Below the pieces are notes generated by a model that ran no database searches, was not told the DNA's origin, and worked only from the letters and a program-made list of their open reading frames with translations. DNA of 64,000 nt from an uncultured Acidobacteriota bacterium. GTDB taxonomy: Bacteria > Acidobacteriota > Vicinamibacteria > Vicinamibacterales > UBA2999. Below, one piece after another: positions 5,031 to 58,539 of this stretch. The translations under genes and the position numbers were made by a program. The number at the start of each line of letters is the position of its first letter. Position 1 is the first letter of the stretch. The stretch spans positions 312,304 through 376,303 of the forward strand of contig CAVVTC010000005.1 of the NCBI GenBank assembly GCA_963751025.1. The letters are read 5' to 3'.

Positions 5031-5999
5031 ATGCTGCTCGCAGGTGATGTCGGTGGAACGAAAACGCTGCTCGGACTGTTCGAGCGGCAGCAGCCGCGGC
5101 CGGTCCCGCACGGCGTCCGCAGCTACGCGACTGCATCGTTTGCACAGTTCTCCGACATCCTCGACGCCTTCGCGAACGATGTGCGCCAGCCCCTCATGGT
5201 CGACGCCGTCGCGCTCGGCGTCGCCGGTCCGGTGGTTGGCAGCCGCGCGATGCTGACCAACGTGGACCTCGAGATCGATGCCGACGAGGTCGGCGCGCGG
5301 CTGGGCGCGCGTCGCGTCCGTCTGCTGAACGATCTCGAAGCGGTGGCCAGCGCCATCGCCGTGCTCACGCCCGACGAGCTCGTCACGCTGCAGGACGGCA
5401 CACCTCTCGAAAATGGCAACCTCGCCGTGATCGCCGCCGGCACCGGGCTCGGTGAGGCGTTTCTGCATCGGGTGGAGGGGGGCTGGCGGCCGGTGGCGAC
5501 CGAAGCCGGCCACGCCGACTTCGCGGCACGCACGGATCGGGAGCTCGACTTCGTTCGCATGCTGCGCGACCGGTACGGGCGGGCCGAGATCGAACAGGTA
5601 CTGAGCGGCCAGGGCCTGCTCAACCTGCATCGCTTCACGCATCGCGGCGGCGAGTGTCCGATCGTGCAGGACCTGGAATCGCCCAACGCTCCGGCGCTGG
5701 TCTCGCAGGCCGCGCTGGGCGGACGCTGTCAGGGCTGCGCCGATGCCTTGAAGATGTTCGTCGCCGCGTACGGCGCGGAAGCCGGCAACCTCGCCTTGCG
5801 GACGATGGCCACGGCCGGCGTCTACATCGGCGGCGGCATCGCCAAGAAAATCCTGCCGGCGTTGACGACCGGCAGCTTCATGAAGGCGTTTCGAGCCAAG
5901 GACCCGATGACGGACCTGGTCGCGAAGATCCCCGTCCGCGTGATCCTCAACGAGGAGGCCGGACTCCTCGGCGCGGCCGTCGCCGCCCAGCGGTTGTAG
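5031..5999 (+). CDS. glk: Glucokinase
   Basis: Intact. Motifs seen are MLLAGDVGGTKT, LNDLEA, AAGTGLGEA, EAGHADFA and GVYIGGGI. Length is typical for Glk. The ATG at 5031 is in frame with ORF 4977..5999. Confidence 0.85.
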   Translation: MLLAGDVGGTKTLLGLFERQQPRPVPHGVRSYATASFAQFSDILDAFANDVRQPLMVDAVALGVAGPVVGSRAMLTNVDLEIDADEVGARLGARRVRLLNDLEAVASAIAVLTPDELVTLQDGTPLENGNLAVIAAGTGLGEAFLHRVEGGWRPVATEAGHADFAARTDRELDFVRMLRDRYGRAEIEQVLSGQGLLNLHRFTHRGGECPIVQDLESPNAPALVSQAALGGRCQGCADALKMFVAAYGAEAGNLALRTMATAGVYIGGGIAKKILPALTTGSFMKAFRAKDPMTDLVAKIPVRVILNEEAGLLGAAVAAQRL

Positions 6000-6002
6000 A
6001 GG

Positions 6003-6063
6003 GGCGGCTGAAGCCGCCGCGAGACACGGCGCACGGCTGAAGCGTGTCCGGCTCTAGCCGGAC
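6003..6063. terminator. Three consecutive GGCT-NN-AGCC-type hairpins between convergent genes. They are REP-like and a probable bidirectional terminator.
   Basis: The hairpins are ggcggctgaagccgcc (6003-6018), cacggctgaagcgtg, and gtccggctctagccggac (6046-6063). The last stem recurs at 12879-12944. Confidence 0.65.
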
Positions 6064-7531: not shown

Positions 7532-10252
7532 CTAATTGCGTGCAGCGAGCGGCCAGTTCATGAGGACGACGTAATCGCGCGCGGGCCGCAGGAAGCAGTT
7601 GACGATGAATCGCTTGCCGTCCAGCGTGTCGTACGGATGGCCCCAGAACTGGCCGTTCATGGGTGGAGACTGCGTCGCGCTTCCCGGACACGGACGGAAC
7701 AGCGCTTGCGCGCGAGGCACGGGACCCTCGAGACGGAGCGTGCTGGTCGCCACCGCGTGAATCGTCGCGTCCTCGGACATGAAGTACAGCTCCTGTCCGT
7801 CAGGACGCCACACCGGAAAGTCGCCTCCGGACTCGGAGATCTGAACTTTTCTCTGCACCGACAGCTCCGTTCGCGAACGGCCGGACAAAGACCTCGAATC
7901 GTCCGGTCTCCTCGGAGGTGTACGCCACCCATTTCCCATCTGGCGAGAATCGAGTCCCGCCGTGGCGCGACGGGTTGTCGAACAGACGCTTCGCCGTACG
8001 GTCACCCGACGAGACGATCAGCGTCCTGGTGGCGCTCTGATCCAACGGGTACTCATCAACGGTAATCCATCGTCCGTCACGCGACCAGTCTGTCGGCGAA
8101 CCGAAGGTCGTCAGCAACTGCGTCTCCTCAGCGGCGGCGTCGATGGCAGCCTTCATGTAGAGCATCGTTTCCGGCTTGCCGCCGCGATCCGAGCCGAACA
8201 GCATCTGTGTGCCGTCGCCAGACCACACCGGGTGCCAGTCGTTCGCGGTGTTTCGAGTGAGTGGCGCGGCGATGCCGCGGTCGATCTCTATCGTCCACAC
8301 ATCGCGATTGCCGTTCTTGGGGTCCGGATACGTGAAGGCGATGCGATCGCCCGCGGGGGACAGCCGTGGCTGCGTGACGTCGCCTGGGGGTCCCACGGTG
8401 CTCACGTGCTGGCCGCTTCGATCGAACCATGTGAGTTGCGTGCCTCCGGCTCCAGGCGGCCGCACGACAATCACACCCCCGAGCGCGGCCGCCTGAAAGG
8501 CGGCGCCGATGCCGGCCGAGTTGTAGTCCACGCCGGCAATCACCGGTTGTGGAGCGCCGAGTGCGTTGCGGTCGGCGTCGAAGGTGCGGGCTTCGAGACC
8601 GCCGTCGCGGTAGTAGAGCAAGGCGCCCGTGCCGCCGCGTCCGGCCGGAAGATAGAGCGCCTTCGATTGCGCGCTCATCACCCGCTGAAGATCCGGTGAG
8701 TCGAGCGATCCGAGATACAGCGTGTTGTTCGCCGCGACCGCGCAGCGCGACGTGAAGAGAAACCGGCGGCCATCGGGCAGGAACGTCGGCCCGCGATGCG
8801 AGTTCTCGCCGAGCGCCTCGTTCAACTGCGTGAGCGGTGCAGGCTCGCCACCGGATTCGGAAATGCGAAACAGCGGCTGACGGTTGCTCGGGCGGAAGAT
8901 GATGACGCCGCTCGAGCCCCACGATGCCTGCTGAAATCCGGGCAACGTGGCAATCGTCTGCGGCTGTCCGCCGTTGACAGGGACCTTCTTCAGTCGTCCG
9001 TCGGCGAAGAAGCCAAGCCACGCGCCATCGGGAGACCAGATTGGCGTTTGTGCGCCTTCGGTGCCAGGGATCGAGCGCGACTCCGACGAATCGATCGCGC
9101 GAATCCAGAGCGACGGCACGCCTTTGTCGTTGGTCCCGATGAAGACAAAGCGGCTGCCGTCGGGAGAAGGCTCTGGCACCGTGCTGATCGCGACGTCTGT
9201 CATCTGCCCCGCGAACGACAGCGTGAACTGCGCGGGAGTGGCAGCCGCGCTACCGCTCGCGCCGAGAAAACGCGCCAAGCCGGCTCCCGCGATCGCCGCC
9301 ACACCGATCGCGGCAGCCGCCCACAGCCAGACGCGCATGCCTTTTGGGGCGGCGGACACCGCGGCACTAGTGGAATCGGCCGTCACCGCTCCCGCGAGGA
9401 TCTCGTCGATCTGCAAGCGCGCATCGCCAACGTCGCGCAGACGCTGCCGGGGATCCTTGGCAAGGCAGCGCTTGACCAGACTCGACACGCCGGCAGGTGC
9501 AATGGCGCGCAGCGAATTCCACTCCGGATCGTGATCGAGGATCGCGGCGATGGTGTCGGAGATCGTCTGGCGGGCGAACGCGGGGCGGCCAGCGATCATC
9601 TCGTAGAGCAGGCAGCCGAACGCCCAGATGTCCGTGCGCTTGTCCAGTGACTGACCGCGCATCTGCTCGGGGCTCATGTAGGCCGGCGTGCCGACGACGA
9701 GTCCTTCCTGCGTCGCGAAGGCGGTCACGGTGGACGCGTCTGCGTCATCGGGTTCGAGCTCATCTCCGGCGACGGCCTTGGCCAACCCGAAGTCCAGCAC
9801 CTTCACCAGCCCCGACGATGTCACCTTGACGTTGGCGGGCTTCAGATCCCGATGGACGATGCCGCGCTCGTGCGCGGTGTCGAGCGCGTCGGCAATCTGC
9901 CGCGCCACGGCAAGCGCCTCGGGAACTGGCAGAGTCCCGCGCAGGAGGCGCTCCGCGATCGTCTCGCCGTCGACCAGCTCCATGACCAGGGCGTGGATGC
10001 CGTCGCCGTCCTCCACGCCGTGGATGGTGGCGATGTTCGGATGATTCAGTGACGCCAGCGATGCGCGCTTCGCGCTCGAAGCGCGCGCGCCGATTCGGGT
10101 TGGCAGTGAACGCGTGCGGCAGGATCTTGATCGCCACGTCGCGCTGCAGGCTGCGTGTCGCGTGCGCGATAGACCTCGCCCATACCACCTGCACCAACGC
10201 GCTCGTGCAGCTGGTAGACACCGAGGCGACGGCCGGTCAATTCAGCATTCAT
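7532..10252 (-). CDS. Ser/Thr protein kinase fused to a TM segment and a TolB-like beta-propeller, with at least 3 frame changes (about 10150, 10030, 7830)
   Basis: Kinase motifs are GAGGMGEVY, VAIKIL, HRDLKPANV, DFGLAK and GTPAYMSPEQ. A hydrophobic segment WLWAAAAIGVAAIAGAGL follows. Repeated SPDG / WSPDG / FSPDGKWVAY propeller blades then run to the C-terminus. Confidence 0.85.
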
Positions 10253-12822: not shown

Positions 12823-12878
12823 GCGATTGCGCGCCGCCCAGTAGGACGGCAGCAGGAGATACGGGAAGGCAAGGTCGC

Positions 12879-12944
12879 GGTCCGGCTAAAGCCGGACACT
12901 ACGACAGAGCCGGGCGCCCCGAAGTGTCCGGCTTTAGCCGGACC
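12879..12944. repeat. Pair of inverted GTCCGGCT-NN-AGCCGGAC hairpins (BIME/REP-like) between the ABC ATPase and permease genes
   Basis: The sequence ggtccggctaaagccggacac ... gtgtccggctttagccggacc has the same 8-nt stem as 6046-6063. The two hairpins also pair with each other. Confidence 0.8.
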
Positions 12945-12948
12945 GATG

Positions 12949-17655: not shown

Positions 17656-18946
17656 ATGCTCCGTCGGGCCCTCTGGGTCATCGTCGTCAACGTGGTCGTC
17701 TTCTGCGTGCTCGCGGAATCAGTCGCGCTCTTCATTTTCTACAACCAGACCGGACGCCTGTTTTACACCTACCGGAAGCCGTACGAGCCGATCCCTGAAA
17801 CGCAGCAGGGCCGGATCACCGGCGACGGACTTCATCCCTACTTCGGCCCGACGCATCGGCAGGGTCACCCGTTCGACATTCCCGAGACGCTCCGTGAGCG
17901 CTCAACGACACCAGCGCGCCTGACGACGAACAACTTCGGGTTCGTGGCGGCGCACGACTACCCGTTCGTCAAGACCAACCCGAACCAGTTCGTCATCGGC
18001 ATCTTCGGCGGGTCGGTCGGCGCGTGGTTCTGCCAGATCGGCATCAACCGGCTCCTCGACGACCTGAAGGCGAACCCGTACTTCAAGGGCCGGGAGCTCG
18101 TGCCGCTGTGCCTCAGCCACGAGGGCTACAAGCAGCCGCAGCAACTGCTGGTGCTGTCGTACTTCCTGTCGATCGGTCAGGCCTTCGATCTCGTCGTGAA
18201 CATCGACGGCTTCAACGAGGTGGCGCTCGCCAGCCTCAACCACCAGCGCGGTCTCGACATCTCGATGCCGAGCGCCATGCACCTGGAGCCGCTCGTCAAC
18301 CTGGTGAATCAGTCATCGCTTACGCCGGAGAAGCTGCAGTCCCTGGCGGCGATCAGCGAGTACAAGGAACGCATCAACTATCTGGTCGGACGACTGCAGC
18401 AAAACCGCATCGCGGCGATCAACGTCGTTTTGGAGCAGCTGCACGCGAGCGCGACAGGAAGCTATCAGGCCGAGCTCGGTCGCTTCGGCAGCCTGCCGTC
18501 GAATCCGTCGAACGCGTCGTTGATTCTCGCGACGCCAAGCGTGACCGCTCGGGACGAGGCACGCGCGCTGGCGGACGCGGCGACAAACTGGTCTGAAGCG
18601 TCGGCGTTGATGCAGACGATGCTCGCGGCCAGGGGGGTGACCTACTTCCACGTCCTGCAGCCGAACCAGTACTTCACGACGCGAACGTTCACCGCGGACG
18701 AAGCAAGGTCGCCCGTTCAGACTCCTCGCCTTTCAAGACAAGTGCCGAGGCCGGCTATCCGGCGCTGATGAGAGAGTCCGCGGCGCTGAAGACGCGAGTC
18801 AACTTCCTCGACGCCACGGGCATCTTCGATCGCGAGGCGTCAGCCGTGTATATGGACGACTGCTGCCACTACACGTTGCGCGGCAATCAGCTGCTCGCCG
18901 ACGCTATCGCCGGTCGGATCTTGACTTCAAAGGGACCCTGGAACTG
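17656..18946 (+). CDS. N-terminally anchored hypothetical protein, possibly an SGNH/AlgJ-like acyl-esterase or O-acyltransferase, with a frame change near 18710
   Basis: The TM is LWVIVVNVVVFCVLAESVALFIF. After the frame change the C-terminal end reads YMDDCCHYTLRGNQLLADAIAGRI, which resembles SGNH block V (DxxH..G..LA). Confidence 0.45.
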
Positions 18947-23717: not shown

Positions 23718-24809
23718 ATGGAACAGATCGACACCGTCGTGATCGGCGCCGGCGTGGTCGGACTCGCGGCGGCGTGGTCGCTCGCCGAGCGCGGCCACAG
23801 CGTCTGCGTCCTCGAACGCGAGCCTCGCGCCGGCATGGGCACGAGCACGCACAACAGTCAGGTCATTCATGCCGGCATGTACTATCCGGCCGGCAGCCTC
23901 AAGGCGCGCCACTGCGTCAACGGCGCGCGAATGCTGTACGAATTCTGTGGCAGGCACGGCGTGCCGCACGCCCGAAGCGGCAAGCTGATCGTCGCGCACG
24001 ACGACACGGAGGTCGAGGCGCTCGAGGCGATCCGGCAGCGCGGCGAGGTCAACGGCGTCGAAGGCCTCCGGCTGGTGGACCAGACATTCATCCGCGCGCG
24101 CGAGCCGCACGTGGCCGCGCGCACGGCGCTGTTCTCGCCGAATACCGGCATGCTCGAAGCGGAGGCGCTGGTGCGGACCCTGGTGCGGCTCTGCACCGAT
24201 CGGGACGTGGCGGTGCTTCCCGGCTCACCGCTCGTGGGCGCCGATTCGCGGGCCGACGGCGTCGAGCTGCGCACGAGGGCGGAAACGATCGTCGCGCGAG
24301 CGGTCGTCAACGCCGCCGGCCTCTACGCCGACGAGGTCTCGGCCATGCTCGACGGACAGACGTTCCGGATCTACCCGTGCCGGGGCGAGTACGCCGAGCT
24401 CGTGCCCGCAAAGCGCGGGTTCGTGAACGGCCTCGTCTACCCTCTGCCGCACACGCACGGCCTCGGCGTCCACCTGACCAAGACCATCGCCGGCAACGTC
24501 ACGCTCGGTCCGACGGTGTGCTATCAGAACCGGAAGGACGACTACGAGGACAACCGGCTCCCGATCGAGGCGTTCCTGGAACCGGCACAGCGGCTCCTGC
24601 CCGAGCTGCGGCTGGACGATCTCCGGCTCGGTGGCAGCGGCATTCGAGCGAAGCTCCACCCTCCTGAGCAGTCGTTCTCGGATTTTCTGATTGCGAGGGA
24701 TGAGAAGAACCCGCGCCTGGTTCAGGCCGCGGGCATCGAGTCGCCGGGGCTCACGTCATGCCTGGCGATTGGGGAGCACGTGGCGGGGCTGGTCGAGGAG
24801 ATTCTGTGA
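23718..24809 (+). CDS. FAD-dependent oxidoreductase, L-2-hydroxyglutarate-oxidase-like (LhgO/DAO family)
   Basis: Intact. Motifs are [29 protein letters not shown] and [17 protein letters not shown]. This is the only plus-strand gene in this stretch. Confidence 0.75.
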
Positions 24810-24987
24810 CTGCGCTGCTTCTCACGGTGACTGCACGTGACTGCTCATGTCACGAAACCGCCGAGGCACTGAGGCACGGAGCTTTTTCTTGGACGACTGC
24901 ACGTGCAGTCATGACCAAGACAAGCCTCCGCGCCTCCGTGTCTCCGCGATGTCGTGCGACGAGCGAAGTCATGTGAAGTCACTGCTA
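24806..24987. repeat. Copy A of a ~180-bp palindromic intergenic element whose arms contain 8-bp CCTCCGCG-type tandem units. It spans stop codon to stop codon.
   Basis: The sequence is gtgactgcgc..gtgactgcacgtgactgc..cgaggcactgaggcacggag..gactgcacgtgcagtc..cctccgcgcctccgtgtctccgcg..gaagtcactgctag. It aligns by eye with the reverse complement of 27959-28151. The flanking stops TGA 24807-24809 and TAG (complement of 24985-24987) lie inside its termini. Confidence 0.85.
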
Positions 24988-25840
24988 GACCTTTCGCAGC
25001 TGCCACCAACAGCTCGCGTCGAGCAGCACGCGCGCGAGTACACGCTTCGGATTGAGCGCACCCGGCGCCACATGCGTCGCGTAGTAGAGATACGCGCTCT
25101 CGTGGAACGCCTTGATCGACGCCGCGCGCGCCGTTCGGCTCGAATGGCCGACGCGATGCACCGCGGTGGCTGCGGGCACGTAGCGCACCTCGTGGCCGCG
25201 CGCACGCAGGCGGCGGCAGAGGTCGGCATCCTCCCAGTAGAGAAAGTAGCGCGGGTCGAACCCGTCCACCTCGTCGAACGCACTCCGGCGCACGAGCATG
25301 CAGGCGCCCGACACCCAGTCCACGACCGTGCTCTCGCGGCCGCTGGCCGTCGTGACGACATTGCGCGTTGCGGCCGACGATGATGGCAGCAGTCGCCGCA
25401 GCGGGCTGGTGCGACCGAAGAGTCCGGTGAGCATGTCCGGATCGCCGCGCGCGCTTCCCTGCACCGAGCCGTCAGGGTCGAGCACGCGCGGTCCGACGAT
25501 CGCGCGCCGCGGATGCGCCTCGAGCTCGGCCCGCATCGCGGCGACCGCCCCGCGCGCGAGCGCGGCAGTCGGGGTTGATGATCAGCACGAGCGGCGCGCT
25601 CGACGCGGCAACGCCCTGGTTGACGCCGCGGCCGAACCCGACGTTGGCCGTGTTCCGCACGATGCGCGCGTGAGGCGCGAACTCCGCGGCGATGTCGGCG
25701 CTGCCGTCCTCCGACGCGTTGTCCACGACCACGGCTTCCCATGCCCGGCCGGTCATCTCGTCGGCAATCGATCGCAGCGCCGCGCGGAGCTCGTCCCCGG
25801 CGTTGTAGTTGACGATCACCGCCGCCAGCTCCGGCGTCAC
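24985..25840 (-). CDS. Family 2 glycosyltransferase (second of a pair), with a frame change near 25540
   Basis: GTG 25840 overlaps the upstream stop (GTGA). Motifs are AAVIVNYNAGDEL, VVVDNASEDGS, ANVGFGRGVNQG and IINPDC, then YWEDADLCRR in the next frame. Confidence 0.8.
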
Positions 25841-26845
25841 CGGTTGTCTCCGGCCAGATCCAGATCGAACTGCTTCTCGCGCCGCTTCGTCGCCAGCCAG
25901 CGCGGCTCGAGGAGCGGCCAGATCGCATCGGCGCCCACGCGTCGTGTCCGCTGGACGTGGCCGCGCTTGCGAAGCAGACGCGGCAGGCCCGCGAGCGCCG
26001 ACCACTTGGCGCGGAGAAAAGGACCGAGCAGGCCCGATGCGCGTGAAGTGCACGGCCGCGGCGGCCGTGTAGACCAGGTGCCCGGGCATCGTCCGCAGCA
26101 GCAGCCACGCCGGCGTGTTCTTGAGATACATCCACTCGAGGTTGCGCTGACCGTGAAAGACGGCGAACGGGCTGATGCGTCCGAGCGTCGCGCTGCCGTG
26201 ATGCCGCACCACGGCGTCGGCCACATAGCGGCACCGGTAGCCGAGCAGCCGCGCACGATAGGAGAGATCGACGTCCTCGTGCGAGACGAAGAAGTCCTCG
26301 TCGAATCCGCCGAGCTCGTCGAACACCTGTCTGGGAATCACGCACGCCGCGCCGCAGACGCCGAACACCTCACCCGATTCCGTGGCGGCATCGACGCTGG
26401 CGCCGTGGTGCCGCTTGAAGGCGCCGCCCCATCGCAGCAGGCCGTCGCCGGCGCTGTCGATGACACGTGGATCGTGCATGTAGACGATGCGGGACGTCGC
26501 CAGCGCGTTGGGGCCACCGGCGTCGCGGCCGCGCAGCAGCGCCTGCAGCCATCCGGGCTCCGGCACGGTGTCGTTGTTGAGCAGGACCACGAAGCGGCCG
26601 CGCGCCTCGCGCACGCCGGCGTTGTTGCCGCCGGCAAAGCCGCGGTTGTCGTTCAGCGCGACCAGCCGGACCCACGGGAACCGCTCGCGCACGAACGCGG
26701 CCGTGCCGTCAGTGGATCCGTTGTCCACGAGAAGCGTCTCGGCATCCACGCCCTGCTGGGCGGCGACTGCCGTCAGGCACGCCTCCAGATACTGGCGCCC
26801 GTTCCAGCTGACGATCACGATCGAGGCGAGCGGCTCGTTGCTCAT
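25837..26845 (-). CDS. Family 2 glycosyltransferase (first of a pair), with a frame change near 26035
   Basis: Motifs are SIVIVSWNGRQYLEACL, LLVDNGSTDGT, NDNRGFAGGNN, LLNNDT and HEDVDLSYR. The C-terminal end continues in the frame of ORF 25837..26256. Confidence 0.8.
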
Positions 26846-27958
26846 CGCGCCGGACGACTGTCCGCAACCTGTCGATACACGTCGAGGGTGAGGCGTGCCG
26901 TGCGCGCCCACGTGAACTCCGACGCCCGCGCCAGGCCGGCCGCGCGCATCCGTCCTCTGTGCCACTCGTCAGTGATCACCCGCGCAATCTCCGTCCGCCC
27001 AGCCGGGTTCGTCGTCGGGATCCAGCAGCACACCAGCCTCGCCGAGCACTTCGGGGATCGACGCGGCACGCGACGCGATCACCGGCGTGCCGCAGGCCAT
27101 GGCCTCGAGCACCGGCAGACCGAAGCCTTCATAGCGCGACGGATACACGAGCGCCGCCGCACTTCGATACAAGCGTCAGGAGTTGGGCGTCGGTCACCGT
27201 GCCGAGACAGACCACCGCGTCAGGCGAGTTCGCCTCCCGTGCGTACGCCCGTAGACGATCGCCGATGCCGCGATCGACGCCCGCCAGCGCCAGTGACAAG
27301 CGGCGGCATACCGGGGCGTCGCTGCGCCTCGAGCATGGCATCGAACGACCAGCGGCAGGTTGCGCCGCTCGTGCAGGTCGCCGACGTGCAGCAGGAACGG
27401 CGTCGTCAGACCTGCCGGCAGCGCGTCCCTCGTCGTGCCGTCCGCGGGTGTGAAGTGACTGGACACGCCCAGCGGCGCCACGGTGATCCGTTCGCGCGGA
27501 ATCGAATACGCGGCGGCGATCTCGCCGGCCGAGAACTCGGAATCGGTCAGCACGTGCGCGGCCGCGTGTGCGCTGCGGCGATAGAAGAGGCGGCGCAGCC
27601 CGTCGCGGCGGTACGGATACCACTCCGGGTGACGCTCGTAGCTGACGTCGTGAATGGTCACGACAAGGGGAACGCTCGACCACAGTGGCGCGGTGTACGC
27701 CGGGGCATGAATCACATCGACGCGGGCCCGGGCTGCCGCGCGCGGGAGGCCCACGGTGCTCCAGCCGAGATTCGTCGGCGGATGCCGCGGCTCGTCGATA
27801 CGACCGAGACCCGCGGGCACGGCATCGCGCGATCCGCCGAGCGCCACCAACTCGAGATCCCCGCCCACGGCTCTCAGCGCCGGTACAAGCCCGGAAACGT
27901 ATCGCCGCACGCCGGCCGCCGGTGAGCTGAAACTGCGGCCGTCGATGCCGACGCGAAG
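26842..27958 (-). CDS. Family 4 (GT-B) glycosyltransferase, with at least 3 frame changes and no canonical start at the conserved N-terminus
   Basis: [21 protein letters not shown].. begins directly after an in-frame TAG at the edge of repeat B. Later come [11 protein letters not shown] and [26 protein letters not shown] (E-x7-E). The stop overlaps the next ATG (ATGA, 26842-26845). Confidence 0.75.
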
Positions 27959-28151
27959 CTACCTGACGTGACTGACTGCGCATGACTTCACATGTCCACG
28001 AACCGCGGAGACGCGGAGACGCGGAGGCTTTCTTCCGTCAATGACTGCACGTGCAGTCACCAAGAAAAGAATCCTCCGCGCCTCCGCGCCTCCGCGGTTT
28101 CGTGAACAAGAGCAGTCACGTGCAGTCATCGTGAGCAGCATGTGCGAGTCA
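27959..28151. repeat. Copy B of the ~180-bp palindromic element, inverted relative to copy A
   Basis: The sequence is gtgactgactgcgcatgacttcacatg..cgcggagacgcggagacgcggagg..gactgcacgtgcagtc..cctccgcgcctccgcgcctccgcgg..cagtcacgtgcagtcatcgtgagc..gagtcac. It occupies the whole spacer between the GT4 N-terminus and the stop at 28149. Confidence 0.85.
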
Positions 28152-29942
28152 CGTAATCTCCATGTGAAGCGGCGCACTGGCCGCTCCAGCGCCGCGCACA
28201 CCTGCCGGATCTGCACTTCGACGTTGCCGTTGATCGCCGGGCTGCTGAGGACCACTTCGTCCACCCTGTAGGCGCGCATCACCTGCTCGAGCTGATCGAG
28301 CGGACCGTGCACCGGCACGCCGACGATCCAGCGGTGCGCCTTCAGCGGGTCGTCGTCGATGAATCCAATCGGGTTCATGCTCCAGGCGGCATTGGCGCGC
28401 ATCTCGCGCACCAGCAGCTGGCCGAAGCCGCCGGCGCCGTAGACGAGGACGCGGCGGCTCTGCTTGTTGCGCGTCCGAGGCCACCAGGTTCATCATCTGG
28501 AACGACACGCGCGTGGTGATGATGGCCGCGGCCAGCAGCAGCGCGTCGAGGACGAACACGACGCGCGAGAACCCTCGCCGCGATAGAGGTAGTACGAGGC
28601 CACCACCGCCAGCAGCGATCCGATGCCCACGCCCCGGACGACCGCCGTGAGATCGCGCAGGCCGAACGTCTCCCACGATCGCTGATAGAGACCGGAGCCG
28701 TAGCAGCGCCGCGAGCTTGCACCCGAGCACGACGGGCAGCGAGGCGGTGAAGTACGGCAGGAACGGGTCGAGGCTCTCGCCGTCGAAACGCAGCCGGTAG
28801 GCGGCGTAGTAGCACACCGTGATGAGGACGAGATCGAGCAGCACCTGACCGGCATGCCAGCGGAACGCCAGGTCCTTGAGAAACGGCGCGAACGACGACT
28901 TCTGCAGCGCGACGAAGTCCTGCGCGTTGTAGGCCGGCACGCGCGCGAGGTAGATGCCGATCAGGATGACGATCACGCCGAACAGCGCGACGAACGGCAG
29001 CATCGGCTCGACGGCGCTGAATTTCTGCAGCCCCCACGCGGTCATGCCGCCGACCAGGCCGAAGAGATACAGAATCCGCACCGCGCTCCGCTCGGAGAAG
29101 CCGAGCGACACCAGCCGATGCGAGACGTGATCGGTGCCGCCCTTGCTCGCCTTGCGCCCGGCGAGCCGCCGCAGCACCAGCACGAACGCCGTGTCGAACA
29201 GCGGCACGACGAGGATCAGCACGACGAGCACCGCCGGGCTGACGAACGCGACGCGGGCGTTGAAGATCGGCACGAGCGAGGCGCCGGCCAGCACCGCGCC
29301 GATGAACAGGCTTCCGCAGTCGCCCATGAACAGCCGCGCCCGCGGACGGTTCCAGTAGAGGAACCCGACCAGCGCGCCGGCCAGCGCGACGAGCAGCAGG
29401 ACCAGCATCGAGCCGAGCGAGGGAGCCAGGAGCGCGGCGAGAAACGCCGTGGCGATGAGCGCCACGCCCGTCGCCAGGCCGTCCATGTTGTCGAGCAGGT
29501 TCAGCGCATGGCACATGCCGGCGAACCACACCGTACCGAGCAGCGTGTAGCTCCACGGCAGCGCGCCGGCCGGCTCCGCTCCCGCGAGCGCGAAGACCAG
29601 GAAGGCGCCGATCGCCAGCGACGCGACCAGCTTGGCAATCGGCGACAGCTGCAGGCGGTCGTCGAAGAAGCCGACCACGAACATCGCCAGCGCCGCCAGG
29701 AGCACCCACGCCCACGCCGACGCCTGCGACGCGGAGTCCGGGCTGATCAGGCCCACGATCGTGAACCCGACGATGGTCGCCAGCGCGATCGCGATCCCGC
29801 CCATCGTCGGCGTCGGCTTGGTGCTCCAGCGATCCGGCCGCGGCGGGACGACCGCGCCGATCACCGGCGCGACGCGGCGCACGGCGGCACCGAGCGCAAC
29901 GGCTGTCGCCGTGGCGATCACGAAGCTGAGGAGAGCAATCAC
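28149..29942 (-). CDS. WecA/MraY-family polyprenyl-phosphate N-acetylhexosamine-1-phosphate transferase. It is fused to a C-terminal TM + Rossmann-like extension. There are at least 3 frame changes and the 3' end is ambiguous (28149, or read-through to 27959).
   Basis: Motifs are FFDDRLQLSP, NLLDNMDGLA, FMGDCGSLFIG and VPLFDTAFVLVLR. Extra TM helices follow. Then RRVLVYGAGGFGQLLVREMRANAAWSMNPIGFIDDDPLKAHRWIVGVPVHGPLDQLEQVMRAYRVDEVVLSSP. Confidence 0.8.
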   Translation of the reverse strand: MIALLSFVIATATAVALGAAVRRVAPVIGAVVPPRPDRWSTKPTPTMGGIAIALATIVGFTIVGLISPDSASQASAWAWVLLAALAMFVVGFFDDRLQLSPIAKLVASLAIGAFLVFALAGAEPAGALPWSYTLLGTVWFAGMCHALNLLDNMDGLATGVALIATAFLAALLAPSLGSMLVLLLVALAGALVGFLYWNRPRARLFMGDCGSLFIGAVLAGASLVPIFNARVAFVSPAVLVVLILVVPLFDTAFVLVLRRLAGRKASKGGTDHVSHRLVSLGFSERSAVRILYLFGLVGGMTAWGLQKFSAVEPMLPFVALFGVIVILIGIYLARVPAYNAQDFVALQKSSFAPFLKDLAFRWHAGQVLLDLVLITVCYYAAYRLRFDGESLDPFLPYFTASLPVVLGCKLAALLRLRSLSAIVGDVRPARSHGGRPGRGHRIAAGGGGLVLPLSRRGFSRVVFVLDALLLAAAIITTRVSFQMMNLVASDAQQAEPPRPRLRRRRLRPAAGARDARQCRLEHEPDWIHRRRPAEGAPLDRRRAGARSARSARAGDARLQGGRSGPQQPGDQRQRRSADPAGVRGAGAASAPLHMEIT

Positions 29943-29958
29943 AAAGCGGATGTGTAAA

Positions 29959-31675
29959 TCACGAATTCACAAGCTGCGGCGTGCGCGCCGCCTTGTCGCG
30001 GAGCACGAAGGGCCCCCTGCCAAGGATGCCGTCGCAGATTGTATCCAGTCCGTCGGACTCCCCGGGAAGCAACTGCCGCAGGCGTCGAGCTTGAGCCGGT
30101 AGATCGGATAGCCCGCCTTGGGCTCGATAAACGGCAGCGGAATCATCCGGTTGAAGAAGAAATGGTAGGCGTAGCGCCGCGCCCGTGAGAGCTGGGCCGG
30201 GCCAAGCCGCTCCGGGAACGGCAGACGCTCGAGGATCCGGAAGTATTCCTCGGGTGTCTGGCGTCGTGGGTCAGGCCCTTGTTGCGAATCCACGCCTCGC
30301 CGGCGACGATGACCGGCAGCCCCACGCTGGTCAGCTCGACGCCCATCTTGGTGCCGTAGATGATGGCGCTGTTGCACAGCGACATCAGCGCGTAGGTGCT
30401 CATCCCGCTCTCCGGCGGCACGACGAGGATGTTCGGCGCGCAGCACGGGTATGTGCTTGCGCAGCTCACCGAGGATCGGCTGCCGCGAGGGCGGGAATCC
30501 GCTGATCTCCGCGGGATGGACCCGAACGAGCAGCTGCAGATCGGGCCGCGTCGCGAAGTACCGGCACGTCTGGACCAGCCACTCGAGCATGTTCGGGAAC
30601 GCGTTGGCCGGGTAGTGCAGCTGCGCGTCCCACGACACGTTCGTCAGCAGGCCGATCACCGGACGGTCGGCGATCGAGCCCGATCGTCGTCGCGATGTCC
30701 GGCGCGTCCTGCGTCGTCGGGCGATGGAACACGATCCAGTCGAACATGCCCTCGCGCCGGCTGGCGAGGTACTGCATCAGCTCGCGCTCCTGCGCGGCGG
30801 TGAGCTCGTGGCCCTCCCACTGCGACGTCGGCTCGGTCATCAGCGTGTGGTGATAGGTGTCGTCGTGGCTGAAGATGAAGCGCCGCTTGCGGTAGGCGAC
30901 GTTCCAGGTGGAGACGCTGACGCGCTCCTGCCGCGCGACCTCGCCGACGAGGCCCCACGGCACGTAGATGCCGTGCGTGAAGACCGCCGACGAGAACCCG
31001 ACGGCCTTGATCAGCCGGCGGGTCGCGAACGTCGTCAGCAGCGCCGACTCGAGATAGCGGCGCAGCACGGCCTCGCCGCGCGGCTCGTCGTCGAGCGAGC
31101 CGGTCGCGAAGAATCGCAGCGCGCCGGCGTGGGCGTGCTCGCCGATCGCCAGGCCGTCGCAGCGTGAAGCCCTCGATCTGATCGTGCGGCAGCGTGGTCG
31201 CCATGCGCCGCGCCTCGGCGCGATGGTCGGCGGTCAGCCAGTCGCCGTAGCGATGGACCTTGAGCCCGAGCTGCGCGTAGACGCGTTCGGCCGGCCACTG
31301 ACAGTCGCGGCACAGATCGCGCGACGGCCCGTGCTCGACGAACCTGGCGACGTTGGGATAGAGCGAGGCTTCGCACTCAGCGCACGCCGTCATCGCGCCG
31401 TCGCAGAGCAGCGCGTGCACCTCGGCGCCGCGGAAGGTCAGGGCCGCGGCCAGCGCGCTTTCGAGCGTCACGGCATGCGCGTACGAGCCGATCGAGGTGG
31501 CCATCAGCACGCGCGGGCCGCCAGCCGCGGCGGCGCGCGCGGACTGCCAGCGCTCCGGATCGGCGGCGACCAGTTGACGCCAGTCCGGATAGGCGCCGGC
31601 ACGCGCGTGGTACCAGCGCCGCGCCAGCCGCGTCGCGCGCCAGAGCCGCGGGAAGCGGCGGATGCCGTGCTTCAT
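29959..31675 (-). CDS. Capsule-polysaccharide-biosynthesis-type (KpsS/KpsC-like, GT-B-like) protein with a Cys-rich N-terminal region, with at least 5 frame changes
   Basis: ATG 31675 opens MKHGIRRF... Later come LLCDGAMTACAECEAS..LCRDCQWP, ..LLVRVHPAEISGF.. and ..STYALMSLCNSAIIYGTKMGVELTSVGLPVIVAGEAWIRNKGLT. The sensible tail LLPGESDGLDTICDGILGRGPFVLR ends at TGA (complement of 29959-29961). Confidence 0.45.
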
Positions 31676-32358
31676 GCCGGGCGCGCCCCGATCGATCAGG
31701 CGGGCAAACTCCTCGGCCGACGGCAGCTCGCTGAAGGCGCGCCACGGACGATGCGATTCGAGCTCGTCGAGCGTGTAGCCGCCGGTCGCGACCGCAATCG
31801 TCCTCGCGCCGATGGCGTTGGCGCACTCGATGTCGTGCGGCGTGTCGCCGATGACGAACACGCCATCATCGGCAACCGGACCCGCCGCGCGCGCCAGCTC
31901 CAGCGCGCGTGTGGCAATGCGTCGCCCGGTCGCCCGCGTCCTCGGCGAACGCGCCGTCGAGGAAGTAGTGGAACAGGTCGTAGTGCGTGAGCTTGGCGCG
32001 GGCGCCGCCGCGCGTGTTGCCGGTGAGCAGGTACGACCGGACGTCGGTCCGGCCGCGCAGGTGCTCGAGAATCTCGCGCACGTTCGGGAGCACGCGGCCC
32101 TGTTTCTTTGGCAGCTCCGTCGGCAGCAGCTCCTCGTAGCGGCCGACCATTCGCCGGATGGTCGCCTCGTCGGCTGGGACCTCGAGCATCTCGAACGTGC
32201 GAACGGCGATCTGATAGTCGGTCAGGCCGGCCACTCGAAACGACGACAGCTGGAAATCCCGCTGGACGATCTCGTAGACGGCCTGCTCCCACGCCGGTAC
32301 GCCTGCCTTGCCGGTCGTCAGCAGCGTGCCGTCGATGTCCCAGAACAGATACGATCAT
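31672..32358 (-). CDS. HAD-superfamily phosphatase, with at least 2 frame changes. The stop is inferred from the ATGA overlap at 31672-31675.
   Basis: ATG 32358, then after a shift YLFWDIDGTLLTTGKAG (DxDxT), LLTGNTR and VIGDTPHDIECANAIGARTIAVATG. Confidence 0.7.
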
Positions 32359-34306
32359 GCGATCTGAGGGACCGCCCGCCGAAGGCTCGACACCAGACTC
32401 GCCACGTCCAGCTTGTGATGCGCGAGCACCTCGTCGTTGGTGCCGCACTCGGGAAGCGCCATCACGCCGACGCGCGCACACGCGCGAGGCCGGCTCGAGG
32501 CCGAGCTCGGCGATCGCCGTGGCGACCATCTCGCCCTGCCCGCCCTTCAGGTAGTGATTGTCGAGCGTGACGATCGATCGACGGCCGCCGACGATTTCGC
32601 GCAGCCACCGCAGGTCGATGCGGTTCAGCCACGGCAGGTTGACCAGGCGGATGCTGGCGCCGGTGCTCTTCTCGATCTCCTCGGCCGCCTCGAACGCGTT
32701 CGACAGCAGCCATGGGCCGTAGCCGAAGCAGATCGCATCGTCGCCATCGCGGACGATCCAGCCCTTGCCGATCTCGACCTTGTGGTGCGACGGATAGTCA
32801 AAGGGCATCGGCCACTTCACCGACACGAGGCGGAGGTACACGCTGTCGATCGCCGAGTTGACGAGCGTAGTCGACGAGCGCGCCGACCTCGGCCTCCATG
32901 CACGGCTCGAGCAGCGACGAGGTTCGGCACGCCGCGGAGCGCCGAGATGTCGCGCACCGACTGGTGCGAGTGGCCCGGACCGCCGGGCAGCAGGCCGGCC
33001 AGCGAGCCGACGTAGATGACCTTCGTGCCCTCGCTGCACTGGTTGTAGATCTGCTCGTTGGGCCGCGCCGACAGGAAGCAGGCGAACGAGTGCACGATCG
33101 GCAGCACGCCGCGGCGCGCCATGCCGCCGGCCATCGACACCATGTCCTGCTCGGCGATGCCGCACTCGACGAAGCGATCGGGGTAGCGCTTCGCGAACTG
33201 CACCAGCCCGCAGTCCTTCACGAGATCGGCGTCGAGCGACGATCAGGTTCGGTGGCGCTCGCCCTGCCAGAGCAGCGCCTGCTCGTAGGCGGCGATCAGG
33301 TTGTCGGTCTGCCGCGGCTCGCGGCGCGGATTGCGCAGACGCGTCTCGGTCTTCACCGTCGCCGAGGCCGAGCTCGGCGAACAGCGCGTTCGCGGTGACG
33401 AGCAGCTCCGCCAGCCCCTCGGTGTACTGCTGCTCGCCCGGCGCGCCCGAGTGATAGCCGTACAGCTCACCCGCCGCCATCGCCGGACCTTCCATGAAGG
33501 AGACGCCCTTCCCCTTCACGGTGTCGGCGATGATCACCTTCGGCAGGTTCTCCACCTCGTCGAGCGCGCGGAACGTCCGTTCGAGCGCGGCGACGTCGTG
33601 GCCGTCGCAGCGGACGACGTGCCAGCCGAAGGCGCGGAACTTGGCCTCGATGTCGCCGAGATCGCTGACGCTGCGGACCCAGGTGTCCGACTGAATCTTG
33701 TTGTGATCGACGATCGCGACGATCTCGCCGAGCCCGCGATTGGCGGCCGATCCCAGCGACTCCCAGAACTGCCCTTCCTGCAGCTCGCCGTCGCCGGTGA
33801 GCACGAAGACGCGGCGTTCGTTGCCGGCCAGACGGTTGGCGAGCGCCATGCCCTTGGCCTTCGAGATGCCCATGCCGAGCGAGCCGGTGTTGGCCTGGAT
33901 GTACGGCGTCTCGACGTGCGGATGCCCCGGCAGGCCGTGCAGACGACGCAGCTGGTGCAGCTTCTCGTCGGGCAGCAGGCCGAGGCCGATCAGCACGCTG
34001 TAGAGCGCGGGCGCGTCGTGCCCCTTCGACGAGAAGAAGACGTCGCACGCCTGCGGGCCCTTCGTCGAGATCGCGAATCTCGTTCAGGAACAGCCAGCTC
34101 ATGATCTCGAGCGAGCTGAAGCTGGTGCCGATGTGGCCGGACCACGCGCCGGCAATCATGTACAGCGTGTTGATGCGCGCCAGCGCGGCGAATGCGCTGG
34201 CCCGGGCCACGTCGGGCACGTTGGCGTCGAGCAGGCGATTGAACTCGTCAACGGGAACGAACTGAAGCTCGAGCGCTTCGCCCTGGTCGGTCTGTATGTC
34301 ACCCAT
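32355..34306 (-). CDS. Fused transketolase-like TPP enzyme (N-terminal TPP-binding plus C-terminal Pyr/C domains in one gene), with about 8 frame changes traced
   Basis: Motifs are GHIGTSFSSLEIM, SSKGHDAPALY, GSLGMGISKAKGMA, LTGDGELQEGQFWE and VDHNKIQSD. The second half carries ECGIAEQDMVSMAGGMA, GPGHSHQSVRDISALRGVPN and LVNLPWLNR. The stop overlaps the HAD start (ATGA). Confidence 0.8.
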
Positions 34307-34346: not shown

Positions 34347-35160
34347 TTATGTTCTCACTGTTGCGAACGGTTCCTGCGTCAGCTTCGGCAGCGCGACGGT
34401 TCCGTCCGCGAGCAGGCGCTCGGCCACGATCCAGTCAAAGCGCATCGTTGATGTCGAAGCCTTCGTAGCCTTCGGTCAGGAACGGCACGAGCACGTCGCC
34501 GGCAATCGTCCGGCGCTCGCGGACGACGCGCGTCCAGGCGATCTCGAGCGACGCGTTCTGCACGTAGACCGGCGGCAGCGCCTGATACGGCGTGCTGTGC
34601 CACGGCTGTTCTTCGCGTGGGCCGCCTTCGTGGGGGCCGCCTTCGTGGGGGCCGCCTTGCAGGCGGCCCTGCCGTGCCGAATGGCAGCAGCGGAAACATC
34701 CGCTGCCCCCGCACCACCCACATCTTGCCCGGATGCTGGGCGCACTGCTCGACCGCACGCAGCGAATCGACGCCCGGCTGCGACGTGAACGCTGCCCACG
34801 CCCGCCGAATCGTCGCCGCGGTGCGAAACGGACTGGTCGGGCGCAGCAGGCTGAAACAGTCCCACGTGCGGCCCCGCGCGCCAAGCTCGGCAAGCGTGTA
34901 TTCGAGCCACTCGATGTCGGGCGACGTGTCGCTGGCGAGCGCCGCCGGACGCAGGAACGGCACCTCGGCGCCGTAGTGGCGCGCAATCGCCGCGATCTCC
35001 TCCGAGTCGGTCGAGACGATCACGGAGTCGAACACCTGCTCTCGAGCGCCGGCGCGATCGTGTAGGCAATCATCGGATGCCCGCCGAGCACACGCACGTT
35101 CTTTCCCGGCACGCGTTTGGAGCCGACTCGCGCCGGGATGAAGGCAACCGCTGACGGCAT
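34347..35160 (-). CDS. Acylneuraminate-type (NeuA/KdsB fold) cytidylyltransferase, copy 1. The frame changes at the internal tandem repeat (34617-34669) and near 34438.
   Basis: Motifs are AVAFIPARVGSKRVPGKN, IVSTDSEEIA, LLRPTSPFR and PWHSTPYQALPPVYVQNASLEI. The tail FDWIVAERLLADGTVALPKL ends at TAA (complement of 34347-34349). Confidence 0.8.
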
Positions 35161-50697: not shown

Positions 50698-50712
50698 AAG
50701 AAAATCCCATCG

Positions 50713-50830
50713 CAGAGGACGCAGGGGAGCAGAGGTACGCAGAGGCTTGCGACGGGTGGACCCGCGCGTAGCGCGGGCATGGATCGAGCCCGCGCCTCCG
50801 CGATCTCCGCGATTGGTTTTCTCCGTGACA
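50713..50830. repeat. Degenerate third copy of the periodic-arm palindromic element
   Basis: The left arm is gcagaggacgcaggggagcagaggtacgcagaggc. The centre is cccgcgcgtagcgcggg. The right arm is gcgcctccgcgatctccgcgattggttttctccgtgac. It has the same 8-bp CTCCGCG periodicity as copies A and B. Confidence 0.55.
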
Positions 50831-57839: not shown

Positions 57840-57861
57840 CGGCTCACCGTTGTGTCCGGCG

Positions 57862-58539
57862 TCAGCCGGACCGCCCTTTCACCTTCTCGAGCACGAGCAC
57901 GCGGCCCTTCTTGCCCCAGTCCATCCGCTCCTCGAGATCCGGCCGCGAGCGGCAGCCCTCGAGCACGAACATCAGCCGCAGCATGTCCTTGTTGAGCAGC
58001 GTGATGTGCGAGGGGTCCAGATCGTCGCTCGTGTTGAAGTCGAGCAGCGTCGGCGGGTTCGGGTGGAACCGCGTCGTGACGTAGATGAACTTCGAGGTCA
58101 GGCGCACCATGTTGGCGACCGCCTTCTTCACCTCGAGCACCGTCAGGTGCTCCAGCACCTCGCGGCAGATGACGAGGTCGTACGAGCCGTCCTTCTTGAT
58201 CGAGGCGTCGGTCGCATCGCCGATCGCAATGCGGTCCCTGACCTCCGGCGTCGCCAGCTTCAGGCTCATCTCGTTGTAGTCGATGCCGTCGGCTTCGACG
58301 CCAATCTCCTGCAGCAGGTGCATCAGCGCGCCGGGTCCGCAGCCGAGGTCGATCACACGCGTCGGCTGGAAGACGTCTTTGATGAGCTGCGGATTCTTCG
58401 CCTCGATGCGGCGGCGCGTCTCCAGCGAGTAGTTGTTGTCGCCGGCGCGCCATTCGCCCAGCCAGTAGTTCTCGTCGTAGTGCTGTTGCGCCGTCGGCTT
58501 CTGTGCGAAGACGGCGGCTTCGAACTCGGTGATGGTCAT
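57862..58539 (-). CDS. Class I SAM-dependent methyltransferase
   Basis: Intact, 225 aa. Motif I is VIDLGCGPGALM, with later YDLVICREVLEHL. Confidence 0.8.
   Translation of the reverse strand: MTITEFEAAVFAQKPTAQQHYDENYWLGEWRAGDNNYSLETRRRIEAKNPQLIKDVFQPTRVIDLGCGPGALMHLLQEIGVEADGIDYNEMSLKLATPEVRDRIAIGDATDASIKKDGSYDLVICREVLEHLTVLEVKKAVANMVRLTSKFIYVTTRFHPNPPTLLDFNTSDDLDPSHITLLNKDMLRLMFVLEGCRSRPDLEERMDWGKKGRVLVLEKVKGRSG

Follow-up and report, generated by a model that had tools for sequence, protein, structure and literature searches.

Foldback (FB) transposons of Drosophila and other eukaryotes carry long inverted arms that consist of short tandem repeats in variable number, and these eukaryotic elements are kilobase-sized, some of them with coding loops. 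[quoted passage not shown] Here, we analyzed a 64-kb stretch of DNA from an uncultured member of the Vicinamibacterales (Acidobacteriota; 64,000 nucleotides of contig CAVVTC010000005.1, referred to as the window), which contains two long imperfect palindromes, named A and B, within positions 24806-24990 and 27955-28155. The family to which both belong is closest by behaviour to the hairpin-forming MITEs and to REP doublets forming hairpins (REPINs), and closest by architecture to the foldback elements. We assume, with a probability of about 0.65, that A and B are non-autonomous, palindromic interspersed repeats of 150-200 bp, MITE/REPIN-like with a foldback-type architecture, which reside in uncultured Vicinamibacterales-like Acidobacteriota. 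A full-text search for the octamer strings of the arms retrieved no paper, searches for inverted tandem repeats, for MITEs in Acidobacteria and for REPINs retrieved only general REP and MITE papers and none with this architecture, tandem repeats are not mentioned in the MITE review (PMC10969869), and the family is apparently undescribed.

Trimming to the consistent ends TGACT...AGTCA places copy A at 24807-24981 (175 nt, plus strand) and copy B at 27969-28151 (183 nt, minus strand, opposite to A). A global comparison of A on the plus strand with B on the minus strand revealed 79.8% identity versus 67.6% with both copies on the plus strand and about 52% for shuffled sequences, which indicates that the copies are genuinely inverted, although each of them is palindromic (A is 65% and B 71% identical to its own reverse complement). 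The 16-mer GACTGCACGTGCAGTC is the shared exact centre (24895-24910 in A, 28043-28058 in B), represents one decamer joined to its own reverse complement and occurs in the window at these two positions only; the longest exact stretch shared by A and B is ~18-35 nt. The left outer arm of A (24806-24849, plus strand) contains GTGACTGC decamer motifs starting at 24806, 24827 and 24837, and clusters of GTGACTKC/GMAGTCAC are found in the window in A and B only. Both arms of both copies carry period-8 arrays according to Tandem Repeats Finder (TRF): in A these are a repeat on the left side at 24863-24881 and the right inner arm at 24924-24948 (plus strand), which consists of the three tandem 8-mers CCTCCGCG, CCTCCGTG and TCTCCGCG, and in B the inner arms at 28004-28026 (three units of CGCGGAGA/CGCGGAGG) and 28073-28096 (three units of CCTCCGCG), both read on the plus strand and both with 100% matches. 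Folding of the single strands yielded -97.3 kcal/mol for A (z -7.7 versus shuffles) and -128.9 kcal/mol for B (z -12.3). Inverted palindromes of ~180 bp with tandem 8-mer arms, as reported in a preliminary description of this DNA, were therefore confirmed, and the same holds true for the exact filling of the intergenic spacers, as seen from the flanking stop codons. The terminal TGACT of A contains the stop codon TGA of the LhgO/DAO gene (24807-24809), the terminal AGTCA of B contains the stop codon of the WecA-like gene (TCA on the plus strand, 28149-28151), and both spacers are fully occupied by the respective copy.

Copies elsewhere, whose existence the preliminary description had set beforehand as the test of its reading, were found by an exact search for the pattern TGACTGCACGTGCAG-N10-25-CCTCN4CCTC in 15 metagenome contigs of the Joint Genome Institute (JGI), all of them with full-length elements in unrelated flanks. 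These contigs correspond to ~11 further sites. A single site is shared by L005, L008 and L018, and L006 represents the site of copy A; with A and B of the window the family comprises ~13 distinct sites. Copy B had no BLAST match among 72,556 plasmids, and a search of the window against Rfam resulted in no match at the gathering threshold and only in chance-level ones at E<=10. An alignment of 17 copies was used as basis for the anatomy of the family. From the outside to the inside the module consists of two to four decamers GTGACTKCRC, CACGA, three octamers, a T-rich linker and the centre TGACTGCAC|GTGCAGWCA, from which the order continues as mirror image. In the alignment nearly all copies start and end with TGACTKCRCGTG...CACGYGMAGTCA, so that terminal inverted repeats are present; the copies have a length of 150-200 nt, and a long open reading frame (ORF) is absent given the TGA-rich decamers. 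The idea that the decamers supply stop codons in all three frames was rejected, as this applies to two frames only in A and B. The octamers exist in two types, type I (CCGAGGCA / CCTCRGTG) and type II (CGCGGAGG / CCTCCGCG), which differ by two substitutions per octamer that are mirrored on the opposite arm and repeated across all three units. Copy B of the window has type-II octamers on both arms and forms a nearly perfect hairpin, both copies of the syntenic contig L001 belong to type I, and copy A is a hybrid with type-I octamers (CCGAGGCA-like) on the left inner arm and type-II octamers (CCTCCGCG) on the right one.

The long hairpin, which the preliminary description had suggested as the structure of the element, turned out to be a conserved feature. 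On the RNAalifold structure 93.5% of the alignment cells are paired, and this value drops to 31-46% once the partners are slid. Compensatory changes are present at 10 of the 33 arm pairs, and the 39 double-change cells compare with 13.8±2.8 in shuffled alignments, none of 500 shuffles being as high. The covariance model R1 separates the members of the family, which score 100-155 bits on both strands, from anything else (at most 58 bits); copy A reaches 115.6 bits on the plus and 105.1 bits on the minus strand, copy B 142.9 bits on the minus and 140.1 bits on the plus strand. A candidate extra copy at 2406-2618 of L002 is coding sequence and was rejected. The region 50713-50830 of the window, which had been regarded as a degenerate third copy, does not belong to the family, since it gives no match to the model even at E<=10 and its fold (z -1.05) does not exceed that of shuffled sequences. 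This intergenic region (50711-50830) is located upstream of a minus-strand gene start (ATG ~50697) and contains about four tandem 9-mers CGCAGAGGA followed by two units of CTCCGCGAT; it is repeat-rich and not significantly structured.

The distance between the element centre and the end of the flanking ORF is 55-116 nt on either side at the ~13 distinct sites, which means that the copies fill their own spacers. About eight of these sites lie between convergent genes and about four between co-directional ones, mostly at gene 3' ends, and the element of L005 is positioned exactly between the stop codon and the next start of two co-directional genes. A 2-kb short-read contig (L003) terminates inside the element of site A (1971-2013, a weak model match that is cut at the end), which suggests that such repeats break short-read assemblies and are hence under-sampled in metagenome-assembled genomes (MAGs).

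With a length below 500 bp (within the 100-250 bp known for MITEs), its non-coding nature, dispersed intergenic copies at ~13 sites, terminal inverted repeats, a hairpin over the whole element, tolerance within operons and at gene 3' ends, and copies of different sizes, the family resembles the MITEs (PMC10969869), whose target-site duplication (TSD) is the hallmark that was not seen. It also differs from Correia, ERIC and Chunjie in that sequence similarity is absent, in being GC-rich rather than AT-rich, in arms that are built of tandem 8-mers and 10-mers, and in having no known parent insertion sequence. With REPINs it shares the symmetric, hairpin-forming doublet of two inverted units in one extragenic hairpin without TSD, and populations that evolve together within a genome and are inherited vertically in a lineage (PMC3116915, PMC3337134). 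In contrast to REPs and REPINs, the element is about twice as long as a REPIN and is not made of tagged REP units of 20-40 bp: GTAG is absent from A and B, CGTC/GACG has no fixed terminal position, and a REP-associated tyrosine transposase (RAYT), the enzyme by which REPINs are mobilised, is not among the gene calls of the loci examined. The resemblance to foldback elements is purely architectural, without evidence for a common origin. Like the attC sites of integrons, the copies are imperfect palindromes between genes with a structure that is more conserved than the sequence. We nevertheless ruled out an attC identity, because RYYYAAC/GTTRRRY core sites are lacking in or adjoining A and B and the cassette content GT2-GT2-GT4 is invariant in L001, L002, L019 and L023; furthermore, an integrase is missing among the cluster genes and the elements also occur between convergent ordinary genes.

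A separate REP-like hairpin family, GTCCGGC-TNNA-GCCGGAC, is also present in the window (6046-6063, 12880-12897, 12926-12943 and 57854-57871), with 8 strand matches versus 0.05 expected. Two of its units form an inverted doublet at 12878-12945 with arms of 26 nt and 96% complementarity, which looks REPIN-like.

Syntenic contigs were fetched by the protein identity of LhgO (L001 96%, L002 91%, L019 88%, L023 83% and L022 79%). LhgO on the plus strand followed by GT2, GT2, GT4 and WecA on the minus strand is found in the same order and orientation in the window, L001, L002, L019 and L023, i.e. the arrangement is constant with or without elements at 83-96% protein identity; in L022, LhgO on the plus strand is again followed by minus-strand glycosyltransferase genes, and the downstream gene calls differ. 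At site A the element is present in the window, in L001 and in L002, and the site is empty in L019 (spacer of 18 nt), L023 (4 nt) and L022 (20 nt). As these three are the more distant relatives, the element at site A is an insertion in the sub-lineage of the window. The empty spacer of L019 holds a small hairpin, GTCCGC-TTCAG-GCGGAC, which resembles the GTCCGGC-TNNA-GCCGGAC family mentioned above. Site B, which is occupied by a type-II copy in the window and by a type-I copy in L001, contains a different hairpin in L002 and L019 and, in degenerate form, in L023, with arms of tandem CAGAATKC units.

This hairpin of the WecA-GT4 spacer (L019 14060-14160, L002 14255-14335, L023 14055-14160) has four to five tandem CAGAATKC/AATGCAG units and is flanked by the decamer-like sequences CACGTGACTGG and ACGTGAAGACAC, of which the GTG of ACGTGAAGACAC appears to act as start codon of GT4 (MKTL[R/T]VGIDG).

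Pairwise identities of the copies point to a turnover. The copies at site A of the window and L001 are 62% identical and those at site B 68%, compared with 75% between A and B of the window and 84% between copy B and the copy of L007, which comes from another organism and another site. As orthologous copies are less alike than non-orthologous ones, this indicates replacement or gene conversion among members of the family and not slow divergence in place; the DNA of the flanking genes, in contrast, shares 82-91% identity with L002.

In the mechanism that we propose for this repeat family, each copy would be an inverted dimer of one module of decamers, CACGA, three octamers, a T-rich linker and one decamer, so that the centre is a decamer plus a reverse decamer and the ends read TGACT...AGTCA. 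Mobility would depend on an enzyme acting in trans, with the decamers or the hairpin as its recognition site. Copies would land in short intergenic spacers, for the most part at the 3' ends of genes; these spacers would often separate convergent genes and in some cases cistrons, and the copies would replace or join small native hairpins there. Later on they would be overwritten or homogenised by other members of the family, and this would explain why a switch of type comprises both arms and all three octamers at once and why hybrids like copy A exist. A and B would bracket GT2-GT2-GT4 only because the polysaccharide cluster, which is tightly packed and inherited vertically, offers these two spacers, and the bracketing of these genes is incidental. 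In this sense the family is a clean bacterial foldback-like repeat with insertion polymorphism, re-occupation of a site by other hairpin families and concerted switching of the arms, which makes it well suited to study how long near-perfect palindromes arise, are homogenised and are tolerated in bacterial chromosomes.

Several observations weigh against this interpretation. The exact pattern had no match among 185,579 GTDB species representatives. With the covariance model, further copies were detected neither in the window nor in ~84 kb from the more distant relatives, i.e. only two copies are present in 64 kb and none in these ~84 kb, and further decamer clusters are likewise absent from the window and from the 20-kb syntenic loci. 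The centre 14-mer is invariant in the 17 copies, a conservation that is partly circular as all extra copies were ascertained by the centre 15-mer. There is no consistent direct repeat flanking the 17 copies which could represent a TSD; CTG|...|CTG flanks were observed at copy A of the window, alone among the 17. The absence of a TSD is not decisive, since old copies can lose it. A transposase or another partner gene was not found in the gene calls of the loci examined. Finally, some hairpin is located at site B in the window and in all relatives whose spacer was read there (L001, L002, L019 and L023), which could mean that a structure is selected for at this site instead of a selfish spread.

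The last point leads to the idea that the elements are primarily functional RNAs, i.e. intercistronic or 3'-end stem-loops that would be selected to serve transcript ends, stability or processing by RNase III in the polysaccharide operon and at other sites, with mobility as a secondary property. It would fit to the fact that the long hairpin at site B persists despite a different sequence family, that small GC hairpins are present at the empty site A of L019 and L022, and that the elements are located at gene 3' ends; Correia and ERIC elements in transcripts are cleaved by RNase III or RNase E (PMC10969869). The details of the elements speak another language, and we regard this explanation as rather unlikely. 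A U-tract is absent, on both strands the T-rich linker comes before the central hairpin and not after it, and a site scan revealed neither terminator-like nor promoter-like sites inside A or B, so that an intrinsic (Rho-independent) terminator was rejected. A consistent orientation relative to transcription was also rejected, because the slightly asymmetric centre points in one direction in L001 B and L005 and in the other in L004. Moreover, G.T and A.C mispairs are equally common in the arms (15 vs 17), which gives no indication that one RNA strand is under selection and is expected for a palindrome at the DNA level; strand-specific RNA selection inferred from an excess of G.U was rejected on these counts. 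In addition, the spacer at site A comprises just 4 nt in L023. A mobile repeat as preferred here may still affect transcripts, as a 3' stem-loop or as a site for processing of the WecA-GT4 message by an RNase III-type activity, and it is tolerated at transcript ends and possibly exapted there.

The decamers GTGACTKCRC have a 10-bp period at both ends and are present again at the centre (CACGTG cores). The helical-turn spacing, the recurrence of the motif at the ends and in the centre, and the invariant centre, which is partly an effect of ascertainment, would be in line with a protein-binding DNA array with the decamers as putative iterated sites for a dimeric transposase, a nucleoid protein or a regulator. 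No candidate protein is known and the outer decamers, which vary in copy number, show the lowest conservation in the alignment, and therefore we consider this quite improbable as an explanation of its own; if the protein were the mobilising enzyme, it would be compatible with the mobile repeat and not a rival to it.

It is very unlikely that the palindromes originated in situ by slippage-expanded short repeats and intrastrand template switching between the arms without any transposition. Arms made of tandem repeats with a variable number of outer decamers, the existence of tandem-armed hairpins of many unrelated units in many phyla and the missing TSD may be quoted for such an origin, but the same ~150-nt sequence including linkers and centre recurs at 62-84% identity in ~13 unrelated flanks, which excludes an independent origin of the copies. 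Slippage or template switching may have shaped the copies after insertion. Least credible of all is the inversion or exchange of GT2-GT2-GT4 by recombination between the inverted copies as a phase- or antigen-variation switch, which the preliminary description had proposed: A and B are ~80% identical, inverted and 3 kb apart, and L001 has the same inverted pair, but the order, the orientation and the three glycosyltransferase genes are constant among the syntenic relatives, a recombinase domain is absent from the Pfam calls of the cluster, the exact stretches shared by A and B are short for homologous recombination, and the ~11 further sites are unrelated to glycosyltransferases.

Tandem-octamer arms are not restricted to this family. 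The arms-only pattern GAGGN4GAGGN4GAGG-N35-65-CCTCN4CCTC, in which the centre is unconstrained, matched at least 120 loci of GTDB genomes (L025-L144) from ten or more phyla. Among the matches listed are Myxococcota, Gemmatimonadota, Bacteroidota, Planctomycetota, Verrucomicrobiota, Chloroflexota, Cyanobacteria, Proteobacteria and Acidobacteriota, the latter including MAGs of the Vicinamibacteria and Vicinamibacterales. The free positions are identical in adjacent units in 69 of the 120 matches listed, and 54 of the 120 have an exactly complementary opposite arm, compared with a chance expectation of ~0.5-1 in 120. At least half of the matches listed are therefore genuine hairpins with tandem-octamer arms, which have three to eight units per arm. 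The unit GAGGCRCR (GAGGCGCA, GAGGCACA, GAGGCACG, GAGGCGCG), which has the same octamer type as the element of the window, makes up 26 of the 120 matches listed versus ~2 expected. The hairpins are located in tight intergenic spacers, several of the loci contain more than one copy or copies whose flanks are conserved, further hairpins are built of 7-mers or of other 8-mers, and a search of 19 of these loci against Rfam gave no match. A polarity rule with the G-rich arm always at the 5' side, as expected from a Shine-Dalgarno (SD)/anti-SD or Chi-like idea, was rejected, because viral contigs contain 7 GAGG-first and 4 CCTC-first hairpins and the predicted viral contig L154 (IMG/VR) carries two hairpins of type-II octamers with reversed polarity, (CCTCCGCG)3...(CGCGGAGG)3, at 5876-5949 and 7780-7851.

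Near-identical designs were noticed at several loci, e.g. L033, L052, L060/L070, L104, L111, L118, L136, L139 and L143. The form ACCGCA-(GAGGCGCA)2-3-GAGG...CCTC-(TGCGCCTC)-TGCGGT occurs in Rhodocyclaceae, Akkermansia, Kapaibacterium, Victivallales, Brocadiaceae, Sphingomonadales and Gammaproteobacteria, and the form (CACRGAGG)n in Sorangium, Polyangiaceae, Ramlibacter, Pirellulaceae and Gemmatimonadaceae.

It is a tentative and in our opinion doubtful idea that the Vicinamibacterales element is the version of one lineage of a phylum-spanning, undescribed class of intergenic hairpins with arms of tandem 7-8-mers. If true, the recurrence would reflect a shared mechanism, such as a common mobilisation chemistry based on repeat-armed hairpins or a conserved host factor that reads octamers, and not many unrelated MITEs. 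Unless it is coincidence, the recurrence of tandem-octamer hairpins across phyla would be a hint at a class of small DNA, mobile or structural, that has gone unrecognised.

For the window itself the element is of little weight: the cluster of glycosyltransferase genes is an ordinary one with vertical inheritance, and the apparent defects of its genes most likely represent sequencing noise. According to Pfam, the intact gene for the FAD oxidoreductase of the LhgO/DAO type (23718-24809, plus strand; PF01266, 1.6e-67) is followed on the minus strand by GT2 (a) (24985-25840, stop codon CTA on the plus strand at 24985-24987), GT2 (b) (25843-26845; PF00535, 5e-44), GT4 (26860-27958; PF13439) and a WecA/MraY-like glycosyl-1-phosphate transferase with a CoA_binding_3 tail (28149-29942; PF00953, 597 aa as in the relatives, stop codon at 28149-28151), and RmlD-like genes are found upstream. 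The homologues of LhgO have 363 aa and are named L-2-hydroxyglutarate oxidase; relatives with 91-96% identity come from soil metagenomes, and a MAG of the Vicinamibacterales is the first match with a name (78%). The LhgO protein of the window itself had no record in a look-up of exact sequences. The G+C content of the window is ~67%.

Searches by tblastn with the intact proteins of L002 revealed frame breaks in GT2 (a) (near 25540-25565, the gene being split into two frames), GT2 (b) (near 26035), GT4 (near 27000), the WecA-like gene, a HAD hydrolase and a 430-aa protein, at least three in a 571-aa protein and four in the transketolase. Conserved genes are broken by 1-nt indels every ~400-500 nt at 24985-34306, and the same was seen at 17656-18944. 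A nucleotide alignment with L002 contains, in ~10 kb, 23 gaps that are not multiples of three, and most of the frame-breaking gaps are single-base insertions outside homopolymers. Such an indel load is impossible in the transketolase of a genome, and therefore the window appears to be an unpolished assembly of the long-read type, in which inference from reading frames is unsafe.

This has consequences for two anomalies that the preliminary description had attributed to the element. The TAG in front of LRVGIDGR (27959-27961), at the position of the GT4 start codon, and the out-of-frame ATG at 27983 are indeed present in the window, and so is the ORF 27959-28411, which is open through all of copy B. 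In the relatives, GT4 starts with ATG-CTT-CGC-GTC (MLRVGIDGR) in L001 and with GTG-AAG-ACA-CTY in L002 and L019, and the WecA-like gene encodes 597 aa that end with MEIT or MEIN directly before a TGA at the equivalent of 28149-28151. Compared with the relatives, the window has CTA instead of CAT at 27959-27961 and a deletion of 1 nt about 25 nt before the stop codon of the WecA-like gene, and compensating 1-nt indels inside this gene shift its C-terminal CoA_binding_3 part into another frame (PF13727, ORF 27959-28411). With ~23 frame-breaking indels per 10 kb both anomalies are within the error rate of the assembly, and judged from these alignments they are most likely assembly errors and not consequences of the element.

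Besides these features, the window contains at 34611-34658 a tandem repeat with a period of 15 nt (CTTCGTGGGGGCCGC, 3.2 copies, 93% matches), which overlaps with an inverted repeat at 34619-34669.

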